Of a stretch of 64,000 bases of DNA, positions 4,150 through 29,058 are shown in pieces. The stretch comes from Escherichia coli (lineage in GTDB: Bacteria; Pseudomonadota; Gammaproteobacteria; Enterobacterales; Enterobacteriaceae), in NCBI RefSeq assembly GCF_050320075.1, contig NZ_CP190018.1; one strand, given 5' to 3'. The position numbers and the translations under genes are program-made. Numbering within the stretch: position 1 is the stretch's first letter; every line of letters begins with the position of its first letter. The notes under the pieces were generated by a model that was not told where the DNA came from, ran no database searches, and worked only from the letters and a program-made list of their open reading frames with translations.

Positions 4150-4365
4150 AGATATTTTCTTACGGCGTTCACCTGATGTGATCTACAGCATGTTATGCCT
4201 TCGTCATGAAATCGTTATGTAACTAAGCAACTCATCACCTCTTAAAATTATTCTTTGGTGTTATGGCGAGAATCGCGAACCCGGATTATTGTCAAAATAT
4301 CAGCCTGACTCCCTTCTGGCTGCCAGCCAAAAAACAACACTGATAAACGTGAATCCGAGGCAGAT

Positions 4366-4728
4366 ATGTTTCTAAACTATTTCGCGTTGGGAGTGCTGAT
4401 CTTCGTCTTTCTGGTGATTTTTTATGGAATCATCGCGATACATGACATCCCTTATCTGATTGCCAAAAAGCGCAACCATCCCCATGCCGACGCTATTCAT
4501 ACGGCGGGCTGGGTGAGCCTGTTTACTCTACATGTTATCTGGCCGTTCCTGTGGATCTGGGCGACGCTCTATCAACCGGAGCGCGGCTGGGGCATGCAGT
4601 CACATGTTGCGTCGCAAGAGAAAGCGACTGACCCGGAAATCGCCGCACTTTCTGACCGAATTTCCCGGCTGGAGCATCAACTCGCCGCCGAGAAAAAGAC
4701 TGACTATTCCACGTTCCCGGAGATCTAA
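4366..4728 (+). CDS. yibI: Small inner-membrane protein YibI (DUF3302 family, 120 aa)
   Basis: ATG at 4366 preceded by gagg RBS; two hydrophobic helices; recognised as YibI; paralog of yiaW at 19625. Confidence 0.85.
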
Positions 4729-17533: not shown

Positions 17534-19072
17534 ATGACCAATAATCCCCCTTCAGCACAGATTAAGCCCGGCGAGTATGGTTTCCCCCTCAAGTTAAAAG
17601 CCCGCTACGACAACTTTATTGGCGGCGAATGGGTAGCCCCTGCCGATGGTGAGTATTACCAGAACCTGACGCCGGTGACCGGGCAGCTGCTGTGCGAAGT
17701 GGCGTCTTCGGGCAAACGAGACATCGATCTGGCGCTGGATGCTGCGCACAAAGTGAAAGATAAATGGGCGCATACTTCGGTGCAGGATCGCGCGGCGATT
17801 CTGTTTAAGATTGCCGATCGGATGGAGCAGAACCTCGAACTGTTAGCGACCGCTGAAACCTGGGATAACGGCAAACCCATTCGCGAAACCAGTGCTGCTG
17901 ATGTGCCGCTGGCGATTGACCATTTTCGCTATTTTGCCTCGTGTATTCGGGCGCAGGAAGGCGGTATTAGTGAAGTGGATAGCGAAACTGTGGCTTATCA
18001 CTTCCACGAACCGTTAGGCGTGGTGGGGCAGATTATTCCGTGGAACTTCCCGCTGCTGATGGCGAGCTGGAAAATGGCTCCCGCGCTGGCGGCGGGCAAC
18101 TGTGTGGTGCTGAAACCCGCACGTCTTACCCCGCTTTCTGTACTGCTGCTAATGGAACTCGTCGGTGATTTACTGCCGCCGGGCGTGGTGAACGTGGTTA
18201 ACGGCGCTGGTGGGGAAATTGGTGAATATCTGGCGACCTCGAAACGCATCGCCAAAGTGGCGTTTACCGGCTCAACGGAAGTGGGCCAACAAATTATGCA
18301 GTACGCCACGCAAAACATTATTCCGGTGACGCTGGAGCTGGGCGGCAAATCCCCAAATATCTTCTTTGCTGATGTGATGGATGAAGAAGATGCCTTTTTC
18401 GATAAAGCGCTGGAAGGCTTTGCACTGTTTGCCTTTAACCAGGGCGAAGTTTGCACCTGTCCAAGCCGTGCTTTAGTGCAGGAGTCTATCTACGAACGCT
18501 TTATGGAACGCGCCATCCGCCGTGTCGAAAGCATTCGCAGCGGTAACCCGCTCGACAGCGTGACGCAAATGGGGGCGCAGGTTTCTCACGGGCAACTGGA
18601 AACCATCCTCAACTACATTGATATCGGTAAAAAAGAGGGCGCAGACGTGCTCACCGGCGGGCGGCGCAAGCTGCTGGAAGGCGAACTGAAAGACGGCTAC
18701 TACCTCGAACCGACGATTCTGTTTGGTCAGAATAATATGCGCGTGTTCCAGGAAGAAATTTTTGGTCCGGTGCTGGCGGTGACCACCTTCAAAACGATGG
18801 AAGAAGCGCTGGAGCTGGCGAACGACACGCAATATGGCCTGGGCGCGGGTGTCTGGAGCCGCAACGGTAATCTGGCCTATAAGATGGGGCGCGGCATTCA
18901 GGCTGGGCGCGTGTGGACCAACTGTTATCACGCTTACCCGGCACATGCGGCGTTTGGCGGCTACAAACAGTCGGGCATCGGACGCGAAACCCATAAGATG
19001 ATGCTTGAGCATTACCAGCAAACCAAGTGCCTGCTGGTGAGCTATTCGGATAAACCGTTGGGGCTGTTCTGA
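17534..19072 (+). CDS. aldB: Aldehyde dehydrogenase B (512 aa)
   Basis: ORF track 17360..19072 trimmed to ATG at 17534 with aggaga RBS ([17 protein letters not shown]...); ALDH family, catalytic Cys region. Confidence 0.92.
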
Positions 19073-19104
19073 TATAAGAAGCTGGTCGCATTGGGTATTC
19101 ATTG

Positions 19105-19187
19105 CCTGATGCGACGCTTACGCGTTTTATCATGCCTACGGGGACCTGACCGTAGGCCGGATAAGGCGTACACGCCGCATCCGGCAT
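19105..19187. repeat. REP elements downstream of aldB
   Basis: gcctgatgcgacgcttacgcg and gtaggccggataaggcgtacacgccgcatccggca palindromic units. Confidence 0.75.
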
Positions 19188-19624
19188 AAACAAAGCGCAC
19201 GTTGTTACAATTTACGTTTTAAACCTACGTGCGCAATAACCCAATAACCCAGACTACGCCAACAGAAGTGCGTTTCTGGGGCGTGTTTTGCCAGGAGTTT
19301 AATCTCGCGTTTCGATGGTGAGCGGGCGAACCAGACCATAAATCACCATTGGCGTTCCGAGGCCAATCAGCAATAAACGGTAGATAATTGAAGGTTTAAT
19401 ACGCTTAATCTGTACTGTGGATGTTTTACTGGAGTTATTCATTAGTTTGGCCAATAGTTCCATTATTTCAATATGATAAGCCTCGCACTGTTGAAAAGCC
19501 AGGCTGCACATTTCAGAAAGTATATAAAAAACAATATGTCGTTATATAAATAAGGAAATTGCACCGCATTATGGTATTTCATAATATGCGTTAATTGTTC
19601 TTTTCTATATTCTCTGAGGGAAAT

Positions 19625-19948
19625 ATGTTCCTGGATTATTTTGCATTGGGAGTGCTTATTTTTGTATTTCTGGTGATATTCTATGGGATTATTATTTTAC
19701 ATGATGTTCCCTACCTGATTGCTAAAAAACGTAATCATCCACATGCCGACGCCATTCATGTTGCTGGTTGGGTAAGTCTTTTTACGTTACATGTTATCTG
19801 GCCATTTTTGTGGATTTGGGCCACGCTTTACCGCCCGGAGCGGGGATGGGGAATGCAAAACCATGACTCCTCCGTTGTGCAACTACAACAGCGTATTGCC
19901 GGGCTGGAGAAACAGCTCGCCGACATCAAATCCTCTTCTGCCGAGTAA
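19625..19948 (+). CDS. yiaW: Small inner-membrane protein YiaW (DUF3302 family, 107 aa)
   Basis: ORF track 19595..19948 trimmed to ATG at 19625 ([10 protein letters not shown]...) with gaggg RBS; roughly 90 percent identical to YibI by eye. Confidence 0.85.
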
Positions 19949-19953
19949 TACTT

Positions 19954-21090
19954 ATGGATTTACTGATTATTTTAACCTATGTGGCTTTCGCATGGGCAAT
20001 GTTTAAGATCTTCAAAATTCCTGTAAATAAATGGACCATTCCCACAGCGGCCCTGGGTGGCATATTTATTGTCAGCGGTTTAATTCTGTTAATGAACTAT
20101 AACCATCCGTATACCTTTAAAGCGCAAAAAGCGGTTATTTCTATTCCTGTTGTCCCACAGGTGACAGGCGTGGTGATCGAAGTGACGGACAAGAAAAATA
20201 CGCTGATTAAAAAAGGTGAGGTGCTATTTCGACTGGACCCGACGCGTTATCAGGCGCGGGTGGATCGGCTGATGGCGGATATCGTTACCGCAGAACATAA
20301 ACAGCGGGCGTTGGGCGCAGAGTTAGATGAGATGGCGGCGAATACTCAGCAGGCAAAGGCCACGCGGGATAAATTCGCTAAAGAGTATCAGCGTTACGCA
20401 CGCGGCAGTCAGGCGAAAGTAAACCCGTTTTCAGAACGTGATATCGATGTGGCGCGGCAAAATTATCTGGCACAGGAAGCCTCCGTAAAATCAGCGGCGG
20501 CGGAACAAAAACAGATCCTGAGCCAGCTGGATAGCCTGGTGTTGGGTGAACATTCTCAAATCGCCAGCCTGAAAGCACAGCTCGCGGAAGCAAAATATAA
20601 CCTTGAGCAGACGATAGTGCGTGCGCCGAGCGATGGTTATGTGACCCAGGTACTGATTCGTCCGGGTACCTATGCCGCGTCGCTGCCGCTACGTCCGGTG
20701 ATGGTGTTTATACCCGATCAGAAACGACAAATCGTGGCGCAGTTCCGTCAGAACTCCTTGCTGCGACTGGCTCCTGGCGACGATGCGGAAGTGGTGTTTA
20801 ATGCTCTGCCAGGTAAGGTATTCAGCGGTAAGCTGGCAGCCATTAGTCCAGCCGTTCCCGGCGGAGCTTATCAGTCGACCGGCACCTTACAGACGTTAAA
20901 CACAGCGCCGGGTTCAGATGGCGTTATCGCGACCATTGAACTGGATGAGCATACTGATTTGAGCGCATTACCAGACGGTATTTACGCCCAGGTGGCGGTC
21001 TACTCTGATCATTTCAGCCATGTCTCGGTGATGCGCAAAGTACTGTTACGCATGACCAGCTGGGTGCATTACCTTTATCTCGATCATTAA
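19954..21090 (+). CDS. yiaV: HlyD-family membrane fusion protein YiaV (378 aa)
   Basis: Paralog of YibH with the same length and architecture. Confidence 0.88.
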
Positions 21091-22061: not shown

Positions 22062-22184
22062 CGCAACAGCCCAATTATATATAATTTTATATATTACTAT
22101 ATAAATATGAATCTTGCACCGGATAAATTGTAAGCATTACTATGCCGACTCTTTTTTATCTTATTTTAAAATGGAATACCGGAC

Positions 22185-22925
22185 ATGTTAATTAACCGCA
22201 ATATTGTGGCGTTATTTGCGTTGCCTTTTAAGGCAAGCGCAACTGCTTCTGAATTATCCATTGGTGCTGGTGCGGCTTATAATGAATCGCCTTATCGCGG
22301 TTATAATGAAAATACAAAGGCAATTCCGCTGATTAGTTATGAAGGTGATACTTTTTATGTTCGTCAGACCACGTTAGGTTTTATTCTGTCGCAAAGTGAA
22401 AAAAATGAACTTAGCCTGACCGCATCCTGGATGCCGCTGGAATTTGACCCTGCCGATAATGACGATTATGCCATGCAACAGCTTGATAAGCGTGATAGTA
22501 CGGCTATGGCGGGGGTTGCCTGGTATCACCACGAGCGTTGGGGAACCGTGAAAGCCTCTGCGGCTGCGGACGTTCTGGATAACAGCAACGGCTGGGTGGG
22601 GGAGCTATCGGTATTCCACAAAATGCAGATAGGTCGCCTGTCGCTGACACCTGCGCTGGGCGTTCTCTATTATGACGAGAATTTCAGTGACTATTACTAT
22701 GGCATTTCAGAGAGTGAGTCCCGTCGTAGCGGTCTGGCAAGTTATTCCGCGCAGGATGCCTGGGTGCCCTATGTCAGCCTGACGGCAAAATACCCGATAG
22801 GAGAGCACGTCGTATTGATGGCGAGCGCAGGATACAGCGAGCTGCCGGAAGAGATTACCGACAGCCCGATGGTTGATCGTAATGAGAGTTTTACCTTTGT
22901 CACTGGCGTGAGCTGGCGTTTTTAA
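22185..22925 (+). CDS. yiaT: MipA/OmpV-family outer-membrane protein YiaT (246 aa)
   Basis: Signal peptide, beta-rich sequence ending in terminal aromatic (F). Confidence 0.85.
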   Translation: MLINRNIVALFALPFKASATASELSIGAGAAYNESPYRGYNENTKAIPLISYEGDTFYVRQTTLGFILSQSEKNELSLTASWMPLEFDPADNDDYAMQQLDKRDSTAMAGVAWYHHERWGTVKASAAADVLDNSNGWVGELSVFHKMQIGRLSLTPALGVLYYDENFSDYYYGISESESRRSGLASYSAQDAWVPYVSLTAKYPIGEHVVLMASAGYSELPEEITDSPMVDRNESFTFVTGVSWRF

Positions 22926-22929
22926 TTCA

Positions 22930-23054
22930 CCGGTGGATGTCGGTGCGGCTGGCCTACGCTCTCGCACCGACTTGTAGGCCTGATAAGACGTGTTAAGCGT
23001 CGCATCAGGCAATGTGCACCCTACGGTGGATGCGGCGCGAGTGCCTTATCCAAC
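22930..23054. repeat. REP cluster between yiaT and the GH127 gene
   Basis: gtaggcctgataagacgtgttaagcgtcgcatcaggca and cggtggatgcggcgcgagtgccttatcc units. Confidence 0.75.
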
Positions 23055-25025
23055 CTACGGATGGCAATGCTTTTCCTCATTCACCCAGATCCGCATTTCG
23101 CCTTCACCCCGGTTGGCCCAGCTAAACCACGGGATAAACGTCAGAATTTGCGGCTGGCGTTTGGCTGGCGCGCTGTCGTAATGCCACAGCGGTTGCTGCT
23201 CTGGATTGCTCTGTTCATACCGGTAACCCGGTGCCTGGATTAAGATCTTATGGCTGAACAATCCCTTACCTTCAAATGTCGTAAATGGCGCATCGGCGGG
23301 CAGCCACAGGTTATGCAGTGACTCGCCGTTGTCGGCCTGTTCCAGGCAATACACCAGCGGGCCGCGCTGAATCGCCACTTTTCCGGCGACGTGACGCACC
23401 AGAGGGTTACCGTAAACGCGGCGTACCGGCATCGGCAAAGTCAGATTCAGCGTATCGCCCTCCTGCCATTCGCGGGTAATGTGCAAATACCCTTTACGAA
23501 TATCCTGCTCGACCTCTTCCCCATTCAATATGATCTGCGGCTGTGTGCACCAGTCCGGCAGACGTAAAGCCAGCGTATGACGCACCGGCTGGGGCGATTC
23601 AACCGCAATTGTCACCTGTTCCTGCCACGGATAGTTCCCGCTAACCCGCAGGCGCAACGTGCCATTTTCTACCGGCACTTCCATGCTGTTTCCTGCGTAG
23701 ATGTTGATATACAACGCATCTTCACGCGGTGTGTAGAGATAATGACCAATCGAGGTCAGCACGCGGGCGATATTTGGCGGACAACAAGCGCAGCCAAACC
23801 AACGCTGGCGGATCGGTTTAACGTGATCGTAGATATGGTTGAATTTCAGCGATTTTGGATGTACTTCCAGCGGATTCACATAGAAGAAATGTTTGCCATC
23901 CAGTGCCATGCCGCCGAGCACAGTGTTGTACAGTGCGCGCTCCATCACATCGGCATATTGACTGTCGCCTTCCATTTCCAGCATTCGTCGGGCGAACATC
24001 ATCAGGCCGATGGAAGCACAACTTTCGGCGTAAACCGTGTCATTCGGCAGATCGTAATCGCTGCTAAACGCTTCGCCGCTGCTTTGTGAGCCAATGCCGC
24101 CGGTAATATATAACTGACGCTGGGCCATATTGTTCCACAGCCGCAGGCAATCCTGACGCTTGCTTTCATCGTGACTTAAACGCGCCAGATGTGCGACGCC
24201 AGTCATCAGGTAGACAAAGCGTACTGCATGTCCGATGGCGGTTTGTTGCTGTGCGATGGGCAAATGCGCCTGGCTGTAGGCTTTATCTTTCACCATCCAC
24301 GCCGGGCCGTAGGTGTGCCAGTGCGAGGTCTGCCCGCGCTTTTCATATTCCTGGTCGTAATAGTGCGGTTGCGCACCACGCTGTTCGACAAAATAGTTCG
24401 TCAGCGCCAGGTAGCGCGGCTCTTCGGTCACTTCATACAGGCGCATTAGTGCCAGTTCAATTTCCGGGTGACCAGGATAACCGTGTAACTTACTTTCACC
24501 TGGACCAAATACGCTGTCGATATGATCGGCCAGACGGCAAACCACTTCCAGCAAGCGCCGCTTGCCCGTGGCCTGGAAGAAGGCGACTCCGGCTTCAATC
24601 AGATGACCGGCGCAGTAAAGTTCATGACACTCCGCCAGATTGCTCCAGCGTTCTTCGGGCGCTTTTACCGTAAAGTAAGTATTGAGATAGCCATCTTCGC
24701 ACTGGGCGGAGGCGATCAGTTCAATCACCTCGTCAGCAGTTTTTTCCAGTTCGGCATCCGGCTTCTGGCACAGCGACCAGGCTACCGCTTCCAGCCATTT
24801 GGCGACGTCGCTGTCCTGAAACACCATCCCGTAAAATTCACCGTCTTGCAGTCCTGCGGCAATGCGAAAGTTTTCAATCGCATGGCTGGGTTCCGCTTCT
24901 GGGATACGATCGTTCAAGGCGTCCCACTGATAAGGAATCACCACATCGCGGACCAGTTGTTGGTACTGACCGAGGAACGGATCGCTGACCGTCAGTTTAT
25001 GCAGATCGACTTCCGAAATGTTCAT
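23055..25025 (-). CDS. Glycoside hydrolase family 127 (DUF1680; beta-L-arabinofuranosidase-like), about 656 aa
   Basis: ORF track 23055..25073 trimmed to ATG at 25025 with aaggag RBS (MNISEVDLHKL...); motifs YAESCASIG and WFGCACCPPN match the GH127 Zn/Cys site as I recall it from HypBA1. Confidence 0.8.
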   Translation of the reverse strand: MNISEVDLHKLTVSDPFLGQYQQLVRDVVIPYQWDALNDRIPEAEPSHAIENFRIAAGLQDGEFYGMVFQDSDVAKWLEAVAWSLCQKPDAELEKTADEVIELIASAQCEDGYLNTYFTVKAPEERWSNLAECHELYCAGHLIEAGVAFFQATGKRRLLEVVCRLADHIDSVFGPGESKLHGYPGHPEIELALMRLYEVTEEPRYLALTNYFVEQRGAQPHYYDQEYEKRGQTSHWHTYGPAWMVKDKAYSQAHLPIAQQQTAIGHAVRFVYLMTGVAHLARLSHDESKRQDCLRLWNNMAQRQLYITGGIGSQSSGEAFSSDYDLPNDTVYAESCASIGLMMFARRMLEMEGDSQYADVMERALYNTVLGGMALDGKHFFYVNPLEVHPKSLKFNHIYDHVKPIRQRWFGCACCPPNIARVLTSIGHYLYTPREDALYINIYAGNSMEVPVENGTLRLRVSGNYPWQEQVTIAVESPQPVRHTLALRLPDWCTQPQIILNGEEVEQDIRKGYLHITREWQEGDTLNLTLPMPVRRVYGNPLVRHVAGKVAIQRGPLVYCLEQADNGESLHNLWLPADAPFTTFEGKGLFSHKILIQAPGYRYEQSNPEQQPLWHYDSAPAKRQPQILTFIPWFSWANRGEGEMRIWVNEEKHCHP

Positions 25026-25035
25026 CTTGTGCTCC

Positions 25036-26436
25036 TTAAGGCTGTACATGACGCTGACGCAGGTCGCTAGCAATGCGTGACATCATAGGGTTATTGAGTT
25101 TGCAAAAGCGGATCGCCATCGCCAGCAGCAGGTGGAATAGCGCAGGCAGCAATGTTTCCATTGCTGTGATCCCGCCAAGCGAACTGGCGGTCTGGTTTTC
25201 CACGCCTGGCTGGTAGGCGACAAAAATAAACAGCAGGCTGATGATCCCGGCGCTGGAGGCCCAGGCCAGCTTGATGAAAAACAGATTGAAGGCGAAGTTC
25301 ATGCCGGAAGAACGTACGCGGGTTTTCCACTCGCCGTAGTCATCGGCAAAGGCCATCAATGAGAAGTGCAGTGGCAATGTGAAGCCAAGAATCACGCCAT
25401 TACCGAGGATCACCGCCAGCCACAGCGTTTGATAAGCCGGGCCAGAGGGCAGGAACCACATCAACACCGCCAGCGCAGCGAGGAGCAGGTTGGTGTAGTA
25501 GTAAATTTTGACGGTATCGAAACGCCGCGTTAATGGGCTGACAATCACCGAGCCGATAATGGAGGCGAAGGTGACCATGGTGAAGAACAGCGACGTGTAG
25601 CCCGTACTGCCTTGTAAGACGTAGGTAATGAAGTACATATACCCACCGCCGCGAATGTTAAAGACGTTAATCAGCAGGAAAGACATGACCAGCATCAGCA
25701 GTAGTTGGTCGTTGTTTCGCAGCCCGGCAAGATGTTCGCGCAGGGTAAATTTCCCCATTGTGGAGAGTGGCACCCGTTCACGAACCCAGAAGAAACAGCA
25801 CAGGAACATCACCACGGCAATGGCGCACAATACGCCGACGCCCAGTTGATAGCCGCGCGCGGCATTACCCTGACCGAAGAGATCTACCATCCACGGTAAG
25901 CCTACCGAAACCAGAAATCCCGCCACGCCGCAGAGAACGAATCGCCAGGACTGGCAGGAGATCACTTCATTGTGGCGGGTGGTCATGGTGTTGATCAGCG
26001 CGCAGTACGGCACGTTGATGGCGGTATAACCGACTGAAAGGAGCAGGTAAGTGCCGAACGCCCAGGCGATTTTTACTCCCATGCTGGCATCTGGCACGGT
26101 GAACGTCAGGATGCCGATAATGCCGATGGGAATGGCAATCCACAACTGCCACGGACGAAAGCGCCCCCAGCGACTTTGCGTCCGGTCGGCAATGACGCCC
26201 ATCACCGGGTCGGAGATGGCATCAAACACGCGCAGTGCAATAAACAGCGTGCCGACCAGCGCCGGAGTTAAGCCAAAAACGTCGGTGTAGAAAAAGGTGA
26301 GAAAGTTCATGATCAGGCAAGTTATTACGGTGCCGCCTGCGTCACCCAGGCCGTAGCCTATTTTTTCCCGTACAGATAACGCATCGTCAATTTTACCTTT
26401 AGCGATATCAGCGGTAGTAATCGGTGTAGAGGTCAT
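25036..26436 (-). CDS. GPH-family (MFS) glycoside-pentoside-hexuronide:cation symporter (466 aa)
   Basis: 12-TM-like hydrophobicity, N-terminal motif GYGLGDAGG, conserved D/R pattern typical of MelB/GusB-type symporters; 10 nt upstream of the GH127 start (operon). Confidence 0.8.
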
Positions 26437-26661
26437 AGATATTCCTCGTGAATAGGGAGCAATTTTTAGTTTTATTGCAATGACCTGATTAATTCTGCCG
26501 TGAACGGGAATATCAACAAGGCGAGAAAAGAGTAAAAAAAGGTGACGATTCCGACCTGAATTTAAAAGTGTGAAATGGATCAGGTGAAATTAATGTTTTT
26601 GATTAATAATCAAAAGGTAATGTGTTTAATCATTAATGAATAAGCGGGAAATTACATATCA

Positions 26662-27477
26662 ATGCTCGAATTATCCATGACGTTACCGATTAAAGTGCAA
26701 AATGGTGGATTATTTATTTCCCGTGGCGTAGGGAGGCATCCGGCAAGGCGGCTGGAGTCATGGGAAATTATCTTTGTCGAAAAAGGTCGATTAGCGATTC
26801 AGGAAGAAGAGCGGATATTTCTGGTCGATGCGGGAGAGAGTTTATTACTCTGGCCGAACCGACAGCATGTTGGGGTAGAGGATTTTCCCGCCGATCTCAA
26901 ATTTTACTGGCTGCATTTTGAGGTTAAAGCGCCGGATAGCGACCCGCGCTGGCTCACTCATCTTAGCGTGCCGCAACAAACGAAGGTTGCCGATCCGCAG
27001 GCGCTGGTGGCCCTGTTTCGCCAGTTCTTAAGCGAACAGGAAAAGCATCAACGCACTCCGGCGCTGGAGTTTATTGTGCTGCTGATTTTGCAGCAGCTCA
27101 CCCGTGACGCGCGTCTTGATGAACAGGCCGATGCCGCAGGTACCACGCTTGCCTGGAAAGCGCAGAAACTGATCCGCACGCAATATCATCGCCCGCTTTC
27201 TACGGCGCTTTTAGCCCGCGAGCTGTACTGCAATGCCGATTATCTTGGGCGTGTCTATCGGCGGGTGTTTCATCTGACGTTAACAGAAGCAATTCATCGC
27301 CAGCGAGTGCGCGAAGCCGAAAAGCTGTTAATTAGCGAAGCGCGATCGCTCACTGAAGTGGCGGCGTTGTGCGGGTTTAATGACGTTGGCTATTTCCGGC
27401 AGATTTTTCGCAAACACACCGGTTTAACGCCAGCTGCGTGGAAGCGACGTTACAGCAAGGAACATATCAATTCGTAG
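26662..27477 (+). CDS. AraC/XylS-family transcriptional regulator (271 aa)
   Basis: N-terminal cupin-like sugar-binding region; C-terminal dual HTH (...EVAALCGFNDVGYFRQIFRKHTGLTPAAWKRR); divergent from the transporter-GH127 operon. Confidence 0.82.
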   Translation: MLELSMTLPIKVQNGGLFISRGVGRHPARRLESWEIIFVEKGRLAIQEEERIFLVDAGESLLLWPNRQHVGVEDFPADLKFYWLHFEVKAPDSDPRWLTHLSVPQQTKVADPQALVALFRQFLSEQEKHQRTPALEFIVLLILQQLTRDARLDEQADAAGTTLAWKAQKLIRTQYHRPLSTALLARELYCNADYLGRVYRRVFHLTLTEAIHRQRVREAEKLLISEARSLTEVAALCGFNDVGYFRQIFRKHTGLTPAAWKRRYSKEHINS

Positions 27478-27478
27478 T

Positions 27479-27500
27479 GCCGGGGCAATGAAGCCCCGGC
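27479..27500. terminator. Hairpin between convergent AraC-family gene and sgbE (bidirectional terminator candidate)
   Basis: gccggggc-aatgaa-gccccggc perfect 8-bp stem. Confidence 0.5.
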
Positions 27501-27508
27501 GTGAGGGA

Positions 27509-28204
27509 TTACTGCCCGTAATAGGCATTGGCCCCATGCTTACGCAGGTAGTGCTTATCCAACAGTTCGTTTTGCATCGCAGGAAGCTGCGGCGCAAGCT
27601 GACGCGAGAACAGGCCCATATAGGCACACTCTTCCAGCACCACGGCGTTATGCACCGCATCGGCGGCATTTTTTCCCCAGGCGAACGGGCCGTGAGAATG
27701 TACCAGAACCGCCGGGATTTGCGCTGGACTCCTGCCGCGTTCTTCGAGGGTTTCAATGATCACTTCGCCAGTCTGGTATTCATACTCGCCGTTGATCTCT
27801 TCTGCGGTCATCAGGCGCGTGCAGGGGATGGCTCCATAGAAGTAATCGGCGTGCGTGGTGCCCCAGGCGGGGAGATCCAGCCCGGCCTGTGACCAGATGG
27901 TGGCGTGGCGCGAGTGGGTATGCACAATGCCACCGATTTCGGCATAGCAACGGTAGAGCGCCAGATGCGTTGGCGTGTCGGACGAGGGCTTTTTGCTGCC
28001 TTCCACCACCTTACCGCTGGCTATCTCAACCACCACCATATCGTCGGCGGTCATCACGTCGTACTCGACGCCGGAAGGTTTGATTACCATCCATTGCCGC
28101 GTTTCGTCTACCGCGCTGACATTGCCCCAGGTGAACGTCACCAGATGGTGAGCGGGAAGTGCCAGATTTGCCGCCAGCACGTCGGCTTTCAGTTGCTCTA
28201 ACAT
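27509..28204 (-). CDS. sgbE: L-ribulose-5-phosphate 4-epimerase (231 aa)
   Basis: Class II aldolase/epimerase fold, AraD-like; recognised as SgbE. Confidence 0.9.
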
Positions 28205-29058
28205 ATAAATCCAGCCTCCTGCATACGCGCTTCAATCCAGCGCCGCGCCTGAATAATCTCCAGCACCGGCTCTTTGGCTTTTTCGGTCCACATCTCAATC
28301 AGGAAAGAACCGCGATAGTTCAGTTCATGCAGCGTTTTGAAGATGCCAACGAAATCGACGCAGCCTTCGCCAAACGGCACATCACGGAACTGTCCGGGGC
28401 TTTGCCCGGTGACTGGCCGGGTGTCTTTCAGGTGGATTGCGGCAATACGGTCAATGCCCAGTTTCAGTTCGGCGGGAACATCATTGCCCCAGGCGCTGAG
28501 GTTGCCGACGTCCGGGTAGACGGTGAACCACGGCGAGGCGAGCATCTCGTCCCATTTTTTCCATTTGCTGATGGAGTTCATAAACGCGGTGTCCATAATC
28601 TCCACTGCCAGCATGACTTGTGATGCCGCTGCCTGTTCAACCGCCCACGCCAGCCCTTCAGCAAACCGTTGCTGGGTGCCTTCGTCATGGTCCTCGTAAT
28701 AGACGTCGTAACCTGCCAGTTGAATAGTACGAATGCCGAGATCGCGCGCCAGGCGAATCGCTTTACTCATGATCTCCCGCGCCCGCTGGCGCACGGCGTC
28801 GTCCCGGCTACCAAAAGGAAAACGACGATGTGCGGACAGGCACATTGACGGAATAGCAACACCCGTTTCGATCATCGCAGTGACCAGCGAAGCACGTTGT
28901 GCGGCGCTCCAGTCAAGACGTGACAGACGCTCGTCAGTTTCATCCACCGACATTTCGACAAAATCAAAGCCGCAGCTTTTTGCCAGCACCAGCCGCTCCG
29001 GCCAGGAGAGATCTTTCGCCAGCGCTTTTTCATAAATCCCTAACGGATGATTACGCAC
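28198..29058 (-). CDS. sgbU: L-xylulose/L-ribulose-5-phosphate 3-epimerase (286 aa, GTG start)
   Basis: ORF track 28198..29148 trimmed to GTG at 29056-29058 ([13 protein letters not shown]...); overlaps sgbH stop. Confidence 0.82.

Follow-up and report, generated by a model that had tools for sequence, protein, structure and literature searches.

Glycoside hydrolase family 127 (GH127, formerly DUF1680) is the CAZy family of β-L-arabinofuranosidases (EC 3.2.1.185). In Bifidobacterium longum, an extracellular GH121 enzyme releases β-1,2-arabinobiose, which is imported by an ATP-binding cassette (ABC) system and cleaved inside the cell by the GH127 enzyme HypBA1 (PMC8106489). HypBA1 uses Cys417 as nucleophile and Glu322 as acid/base, and has a (Cys)3-Glu zinc site (PMC8106489, PMC10728902). 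Ara127N of Geobacillus stearothermophilus T6 (4QJY/4QK0), also a GH127 enzyme, is encoded in a large arabinose/arabinan cluster with ABC-type transporter genes. Here we analyse a three-gene cassette located between yiaT and sgbE in a 64,000-nucleotide stretch of Escherichia coli DNA (contig NZ_CP190018.1 of assembly GCF_050320075.1, hereafter the window), which encodes a GH127 hydrolase, a GPH-family cation symporter and a divergently transcribed AraC-family regulator. The evidence presented below points to a self-contained, vertically inherited module that probably serves the catabolism of small β-L-arabinofuranosides.

The cassette shares with the HypBA1/HypBA2 system of B. longum the pairing of an importer with an intracellular GH127 enzyme with conserved acid/base, nucleophile and (Cys)3-Glu zinc site. 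However, the two enzymes are only 38–39% identical, a GPH symporter, a secondary transporter, would here take the place of the ABC system and its binding protein, and neither a GH121 β-L-arabinobiosidase nor an ABC component is present among the three genes between yiaT and sgbE, so that the locus is not a HypBA-type system. Ara127N is a full-length homologue of the hydrolase with the same three-domain architecture but, in contrast to the Geobacillus cluster, the cassette is a minimal unit of three genes, in which only a GPH symporter and an AraC-type regulator accompany the enzyme. A transporter gene placed ahead of a cytoplasmic glycosidase gene is also seen in yicJ-yicI and yagG-yagH, pairs of GPH symporters and glycosidases of E. 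coli, although the partner enzyme here belongs to GH127 and not to GH31 or GH43. Lastly, as in araC/araBAD, an AraC-family gene is divergent from the operon, and a CRP-like site and conserved blocks are predicted to lie upstream of a weak promoter; the cassette regulator is nevertheless not an AraC orthologue.

Part of this picture is already known, as the three genes have RefSeq names, their scars in K-12 are annotated, their uneven distribution has been noted and the families of the enzyme, the transporter and the regulator are familiar ones. A 2021 preprint described GH127 as a non-core CAZy family with a prevalence of 98.8–100% in two E. coli clades and of 29.5–67% in the remaining ones, and a 2024 study listed GH127 among the genes which co-segregate with invasiveness of isolates from inflammatory bowel disease (IBD), taking its function from HypBA1 by analogy.

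Results

The hydrolase matches the Pfam models of the catalytic (PF07944, 1.1e-111), middle (PF20736, 1.3e-23) and C-terminal (PF20737, 4.2e-25) domains of GH127. In a search of the PDB its closest solved relative was Ara127N (4qjy, E = 7e-236, approximately 55% identity over 630 aligned residues), followed by HypBA1 (4e-152), while identity to BT_1003 was only 26%. The protein contains the ESC and CACCPPN motifs, which align to E338/C340 and C415/C417/C418 of HypBA1, and the HMMER alignment places E322, E338, C340, C417 and C418 of HypBA1 at E318, E334, C336, C414 and C415. By this alignment E318 is the predicted acid/base, C414 the predicted nucleophile, and E334, C336, C414 and C415 the predicted zinc ligands. 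Cys415 of HypBA1, which has been described as non-conserved (PMC10728902), is matched by C412, and the six active-site positions are invariant in 81 of 81 sequences, of which one is that of the window, five come from E. coli reference loci and 75 are orthologues of other species. An AlphaFold2 model of the hydrolase, with a predicted template modelling score (pTM) of 0.72 and a predicted local distance difference test (pLDDT) of 65, agrees with the GH127 fold of an (α/α)6-barrel catalytic domain followed by β-sandwich domains. The 15 best matches of this model in a Foldseek search of the PDB were all GH127 enzymes (TM-scores of 0.66–0.79), with GH146 coming next; TM-scores to 4qk0/4qjy were 0.76–0.79, and identity to Ara127N was 53% by Foldseek. 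Domain models, catalytic residues and fold thus agree with the assignment to GH127 made by an earlier, sequence-only reading of the window. When read by sequence, no hydrophobic stretch resembling a signal peptide is apparent at the N-terminus, MNISEVDLHKLTVSDPF, and the hydrolase is therefore considered cytoplasmic.

The transporter, encoded by the first gene of the operon, matches Pfam MFS_2 (1.6e-73) and scores 333 bits with the NCBIfam model TIGR00792 ('gph', cut-off 231), which assigns it to the GPH family (TC 2.A.2). Homology to MelB structures is full-length (3e-38, residues 20–460) and includes the helix-II cation site, where D55 and D59 of MelB are kept as D72 and D76. Other MelB residues differ (N58 is replaced by S75, D124 by N141 and D19 by T36), and therefore no particular coupling ion is indicated. 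The nearest subfamily models are those of YagG (357 bits, cut-off 610) and PRK11462 (325 bits, cut-off 836), the latter described only as a GPH-family transporter, and the protein falls below both curated cut-offs.

The regulator has the architecture of the AraC/XylS family, with an N-terminal cupin-type ligand domain (AraC_binding, 1.5e-8) and a C-terminal double helix-turn-helix (HTH_18, 4e-19; HTH_AraC, 5e-8). The best NCBIfam equivalog is AraC (NF007860), but the score of 61.2 bits is far under the cut-off of 208, which indicates that the protein is not an AraC orthologue. No close solved homologue was found for its ligand domain.

In order to footprint the control region, we aligned 70 intergenic regions, one per species, with MAFFT and recorded blocks conserved at 80% or more. 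Several such blocks occur at fixed spacing amid otherwise free sequence (Table 1). If TTGTTG-16-CAGAAT is taken as the operon promoter, the centre of the CRP-like site would lie at approximately -91.5 and the conserved 14-mer GGTCGGAATCGTCA at -71 to -58, a layout which presumably resembles that of P_BAD, the araBAD promoter; an alternative -10 element (TTTACT) would place the CRP-like site at -52.5. The block nearest to the regulator gene is a perfect 7+1+7 palindrome, TTGATTA-T-TAATCAA, the left part of which (TGATTATT) reaches a conservation of 80% or more between genera. This palindrome might be an operator or the regulator gene's own -10 element (AATAAT, plus strand, 26605–26610), in which case the CRP-like site would be located at about -41. 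A scan with Rfam found no riboswitch or small RNA in the control region, and overall returned only a REP-derived naRNA4-like match (REP, repetitive extragenic palindromic) and matches at chance level.

In the model that we propose, the regulator would switch on the two-gene operon, probably together with CRP, and the symporter would import a β-L-arabinofuranosyl di- or oligosaccharide or glycoside. The cytoplasmic hydrolase would then remove terminal β-L-arabinofuranose via the zinc-coordinated C414 nucleophile and the E318 acid/base, and the freed L-arabinose would enter the universal araBAD pathway, through which this sugar is catabolised. Because the locus encodes no secreted enzyme, the substrate has to be a small molecule that other microbes or plant tissue have already set free; candidates are β-1,2-arabinobiose and related fragments of hydroxyproline-rich glycoproteins, arabinogalactan-proteins and pectic arabinan, which other organisms may release. 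We judge it likely that the cassette is a catabolic module of this kind, within which the precise substrate, the inducing compound, the arrangement of the promoter and the ion coupled to transport are the part that we infer.

Several observations weigh against this interpretation. The natural source of the substrate is conjectural, as no recognisable secreted substrate-liberating enzyme is found at the cassette locus. The literature searched, which covered few subscription journals, contained no biochemical, genetic, regulation or expression study of the E. coli or enterobacterial enzyme, and only pangenome associations. The AlphaFold model of the hydrolase is of moderate quality only, given its pLDDT of 65. 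A consensus scan of the divergent region detected no consensus sigma-70 promoter, which is also how an activator-dependent promoter is expected to look, and the promoter and CRP assignments are hypothetical, based as they are on conservation and weak consensus matches. Finally, GH127 is polyspecific and includes α-1,3-(3,6-anhydro)-D-galactosidases (PMC5698469) and, in NCBIfam, an aceric acid hydrolase, so that family membership alone leaves the substrate unfixed.

The hydrolase could accordingly be a GH127 enzyme of other specificity, with another furanoside or an anhydro-sugar glycoside as its substrate, in which case the cassette would be a module for some other plant or microbial glycoside. 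Such an enzyme would be compatible with the family's range, and the β-L-arabinofuranosidase activity of the hydrolase is a prediction; moreover, the aceric acid hydrolase equivalog (NF049879) matches the C-terminal two thirds of the protein (residues 252–649 only) with 455.8 bits. This score is, however, far under the cut-off of 950, and even the supposedly non-conserved cysteine of HypBA1 is present in the hydrolase. Furthermore, its two closest solved relatives, which align over the full length, are both proven β-L-arabinofuranosidases, with BT_1003 far behind. We consider a different specificity rather improbable and favour a predicted β-L-arabinofuranosidase, whose specificity at the -1 subsite appears fairly safe because of the near-full-length similarity, at 55% and 38–39% identity, to these two enzymes.

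We then surveyed 5426 complete E. coli genomes, scoring the full cassette as present when at least 80% of it was matched. The sequence-only reading had called GH127 uncommon in E. coli, which is not the case, as the full cassette is present in 2313 of these genomes (43%). All copies are chromosomal (0 on plasmids) and nearly always single. Partial matches occur in approximately 2470 genomes and no match in 641. Every partial-match row that was sampled across the ranking consisted of the same two pieces (query 109–298 and 4320–4423); genomes of this kind include K-12 derivatives, C600 and other K-12-type strains, and an O26:H11 genome has the same three-piece pattern. When a K-12-type locus was compared with the window by blastn, the joins (22952 to 23163 and 23352 to 27374) corresponded to two deletions, of approximately 210 bp and of 4021 bp, with an 8-bp microhomology (GCGGCTGG) at the first junction. 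Of the hydrolase gene only an internal piece of 190 bp (90.5% identity) is left, and of the regulator gene only 104 bp at its 3' end. Between sgbE and yiaT, MG1655 annotates these remnants as the pseudogenes ysaD (b4649) and ysaC (b4648), fragments of 192 nt and 102 nt without function, whereas the window represents the intact ancestral state. K-12 therefore lacks the three intact genes, as the sequence-only reading had supposed, but yiaT and sgbE are not strictly direct neighbours there, since the two pseudogenes intervene. The K-12 state is derived and reflects one old two-part deletion which is common to K-12, C600, O26 and many other strains.

Conservation outside E. coli was assessed in a scan with one genome per species, in which 263 relatives were found and the best 80 (72–97% identity) were kept; the species counts given here rest on these 80. 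All belong to Enterobacterales, except for seven Bradyrhizobium loci and one record labelled Chryseobacterium. Carriers include Pantoea, Kosakonia, Phytobacter, the Klebsiella oxytoca group, Enterobacter, Rouxiella and Buttiauxella, many of which are plant- as well as gut-associated. The divergent arrangement of regulator, transporter and hydrolase genes is the same in 69 non-E. coli Enterobacterales loci. The cassette lies beside sgbE in 26 of the 69 and beside yiaT in 24, with both neighbours present in 14 (in Citrobacter, Enterobacter, Lelliottia, Pseudocitrobacter and Huaxiibacter) and neither in 32; one further locus was too short on the sgbE side for scoring. Several of the loci with neither neighbour are nevertheless found in the same wider region: the cassette has avtA and ysaA upstream in Kluyvera and Mangrovibacter, and yiaY and selBA downstream in Kluyvera, while in Buttiauxella only the downstream selBA was recognised. 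Among the recognisable flanks in Pantoea, Rouxiella, Kluyvera, Buttiauxella and Mangrovibacter we found no further sugar-related genes, most flanking open reading frames (ORFs) having been judged by their N-terminus or left unidentified.

Some of these loci showed features of their own. The GH127 enzymes of several Bradyrhizobium species (loci L076–L080 and L083) are 72–73% identical to the E. coli enzyme, unusually close for a comparison between alpha- and gammaproteobacteria, which suggests horizontal transfer. Their loci have no GPH transporter or AraC-type regulator. In Bradyrhizobium sp. LMTR 3 (L076:4585-8320), the same-strand gene upstream of GH127 encodes an S9 prolyl-oligopeptidase-like peptidase (oligopeptidase B model, 3e-24), and this pairing may serve the degradation of hydroxyproline-arabinosylated (glyco)peptides such as extensins or CLE peptides. 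The record of Chryseobacterium sp. 18061 (L029) contains an enterobacterial cassette whose coordinates and identities equal those found for Citrobacter sp. 18056 (L027), an isolate from the same project, and the assembly is probably mislabelled or contaminated. In Buttiauxella massiliensis (L073:6545-9860) the regulator gene and a 5'-shortened GH127 match are approximately 640 bp apart and no transporter gene separates them, a state that suggests partial loss of the module by a separate deletion. Directly downstream of the cassette, Mangrovibacter yixingensis (L069:10903-14355) has four tandem paralogous ORFs of 272–276 aa, starting with MSQKSPSRQRRRKAHQ(P/Q)PPGPPPAA, and a fifth ORF (270 aa), whose N-terminus is unlike theirs, stands between these and the cassette.

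The ratio of nonsynonymous to synonymous substitution (omega, pairwise Nei-Gojobori) is 0.03–0.15 for all three genes, within E. coli and between genera, and synonymous divergence (dS) of the cassette is similar to that of the flanking sgbE. The scars in K-12, the site shared with other genera, the conserved arrangement and the omega values together imply that the module is ancestral and that its absence from K-12 is the derived state, as the sequence-only reading had supposed. These comparisons indicate an ancient module, vertically inherited at the sgbE-yiaT site in Enterobacteriaceae and under strong purifying selection.

Loss from more than half of the sequenced genomes, together with a frameshift flagged by the NCBI Prokaryotic Genome Annotation Pipeline (PGAP) in the ST131 hydrolase gene, might nevertheless suggest that the cassette in E. 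coli is a decaying, non-functional relic. We find this very unlikely, since omega within E. coli is 0.04–0.08 for all three genes, the catalytic residues are intact in the 75 aligned orthologues from other species, and the ST131 frameshift, a 1-nt deletion at codon 651 of 656, replaces only the last few residues, in a tail that varies naturally between species. The flag concerns ST131 strain CU568-3 (L005:5081-7050), where PGAP calls the GH127 gene a frameshifted pseudogene, and several other E. coli genomes have the same 1-nt-shorter match; the ST131 gene is probably functional and the flag misleading. A pseudogene reading of six tblastn translations, including that of Salmonella diarizonae, was likewise discarded, as their stops at 645–653 are the natural ends of slightly shorter proteins.

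A functional link between the cassette and the neighbouring yiaK-sgbE operon (L-lyxose/L-xylulose, or 2,3-diketo-L-gulonate) had also been proposed, in which the two would form one L-pentose glycoside pathway. The units do adjoin in the window and in 26 of the 69 other species, and SgbE is annotated as an L-ribulose-5-phosphate 4-epimerase, which is the AraD reaction of L-arabinose catabolism. However, the regulator gene and sgbE are convergent with a stable hairpin between them, 43 of the 69 species lack adjacency to sgbE, and the expected product, L-arabinose, is handled by araBAD. Moreover, O157:H7 (Sakai, ECs_4457 to ECs_4459; strain 138) has an intact cassette beside ysaA despite deletion of the whole yiaK-sgbE operon and reduction of the IclR-family regulator gene (yiaJ, assigned by position) to a 3' stub. 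ST131 keeps the cassette and has lost yiaT through yiaW, and in K-12-type strains it is the cassette that is gone while yiaK-sgbE remains. This is a hotspot of deletions, in which the cassette behaves independently of its neighbours. Convergent transcription, the frequent lack of adjacency and the independent losses therefore lend no support to a shared pathway, which seems most improbable.

That the cassette is a recently acquired islet of some E. coli lineages, as its variable presence among strains and the REP cluster and hairpin at its edges could suggest, has next to no likelihood, being already refuted by the internal fragments of two of the three genes which K-12-type genomes keep in place, and contradicted by occupation of the same site in Citrobacter, Enterobacter, Lelliottia, Pseudocitrobacter and Huaxiibacter, by a core-like composition, by dS comparable to that of flanking core genes, and by the absence of plasmid copies and of any integrase or insertion sequence (IS) element in the annotated cassette locus.

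As for the elements at its edges, the REP 14-mer occurs five times in the window against 0.69 expected, and the REP interval folds with -57.6 kcal/mol (z = -5.2). The segment 22977–23055 of the REP/BIME (bacterial interspersed mosaic element) scores 57.3 bits with naRNA4 (RF02564), an Rfam family of REP-derived nucleoid-associated RNA, just below the gathering score of 59.5. The hairpin on the other side has a loop of 6 nt closed by a 9-bp stem, in which 8 pairs are Watson-Crick and one is G-U (-21 kcal/mol, z = -3.9), and is likely a bidirectional terminator for the regulator gene and sgbE. Both elements do flank the block as first described, but neither can be regarded as a boundary of the block. 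We rejected them as mobile-element boundaries: the hairpin is kept in K-12, and the K-12 deletion ends fall in the REP region and inside the genes.

The coordinates of all features are collected in Table 1. Positions 22100–28300 of the window are 100% identical to E. coli strain CFSAN061763, from which the PGAP annotation was carried across, giving the gene order yiaU, yiaT, GH127, 'MFS transporter', AraC family regulator, araD (= sgbE), sgbU, ulaD (= sgbH), lyxK, yiaO, yiaN, yiaM and yiaL. The mechanical start of the hydrolase ORF is a TTG at 25073, an upstream extension which overlaps the transporter gene, and the ATG at 25025 is preferred. Exactly 10 nt separate the TAA of the transporter gene from this ATG, with a GGAG ribosome-binding site within GGAGCACAAG. 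GC content is 0.52–0.57 over the three genes, similar to the flanks, and 0.44 where the divergent control region falls. The three ORFs, their identities, the operon architecture with its short gap and ribosome-binding site, and the core-like composition are thus all as they had been read from the sequence.

Table 1 Features of the cassette and its flanks in the window.
Feature	Position	Strand	Basis or remark
yiaT	22185..22925	+	flanking gene, PGAP on identical sequence
REP/BIME element	22926..23054		separates the 3' ends of the convergent yiaT and hydrolase genes
GH127 glycoside hydrolase, 656 aa	23055..25025	-	PGAP ATG on identical sequence; Pfam, PDB and Foldseek matches
GH127 segment surviving as K-12 pseudogene ysaD (b4649)	23163..23352	-	blastn, 90.5% identity
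Intercistronic gap GGAGCACAAG, 10 nt, with the hydrolase ribosome-binding site	25026..25035	-	sequence reading
GPH family cation symporter, 466 aa	25036..26436	-	Pfam MFS_2, TIGR00792, MelB homology
Divergent control region, 225 bp, AT-rich	26437..26661		MAFFT alignment, conserved blocks
CAGAATTAAT	26488..26497		MAFFT alignment
CCTTGTTG	26514..26521		MAFFT alignment
T-tract then TA(T)ACT	26531..26540		MAFFT alignment
GGTCGGAATCGTCA, conserved 14-mer	26543..26556		MAFFT alignment
CRP-like TGTGA-N6-TCAGG	26569..26584		across genera, one half-site invariant, the other keeps 'GATC'
Palindrome TTGATTATTAATCAA, near the regulator gene	26599..26613		conserved block
AraC/XylS-family regulator, 271 aa	26662..27477	+	Pfam domains
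Regulator 3' end surviving as K-12 pseudogene ysaC (b4648)	27374..27477	+	blastn, annotation
GC-rich hairpin separating the regulator gene from the convergent sgbE	27478..27501		folding; kept in K-12
sgbE (PGAP label araD)	27509..28204	-	flanking gene, PGAP

Two further observations concern the wider neighbourhood. The aldB/yiaW interval encodes a 47-aa hypothetical protein (L001:3200-3343, window approximately 19299–19442), in a region with a GC content of 0.40–0.47 (window 19000–20000), and PGAP annotates the same protein in a K-12-type locus (L002). In addition, a Fic family gene is found upstream of aldB both in ST131, where its neighbours are yiaY and aldB, and in strains of the O157 type (L004:1-335, L005:1959-3254 and L086:48078-49001, the last being ECs_4465). 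The window strain has no Fic gene and its yiaY and aldB are adjacent (L001:1234-1435), which makes this a second presence/absence polymorphism in the neighbourhood of the cassette.

Discussion

The module described here is an uncharacterised member of well-known families in the standard layout of regulator, transporter and hydrolase, and what it adds is incremental rather than conceptual. A broader reading, which we offer as a tentative possibility, is that it serves as a cross-feeding device. Enterobacteriaceae, which are not known to secrete enzymes attacking plant hydroxyproline-rich glycoproteins and arabinogalactan-proteins, would employ the symporter and the GH127 enzyme to scavenge β-L-arabinofuranosyl disaccharides, for instance β-1,2-arabinobiose, that B. 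longum (through HypBA2) and similar organisms set free in the gut or on plants. The regulator would then be a new β-arabinobioside-sensing AraC-type activator acting at a P_BAD-like promoter, and the presence/absence polymorphism in E. coli, where the cassette is near-universal in some clades and absent from K-12-like lineages, would be a niche determinant.

If the cassette is indeed a catabolic module for small β-L-arabinofuranosides, some 43% of the E. coli genomes sequenced, and most of the Enterobacteriaceae that live with plants or in the gut, would be able to use a class of plant-derived β-L-arabinofuranosides that K-12 cannot, a capacity which would be invisible in work on the model strain and which would explain the K-12 pseudogenes ysaC and ysaD. 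The module would represent a simple secondary-transporter counterpart to the ABC-based system of bifidobacteria, and the link that has been reported between GH127, particular E. coli clades and invasive IBD isolates would acquire a concrete meaning that can be put to the test.

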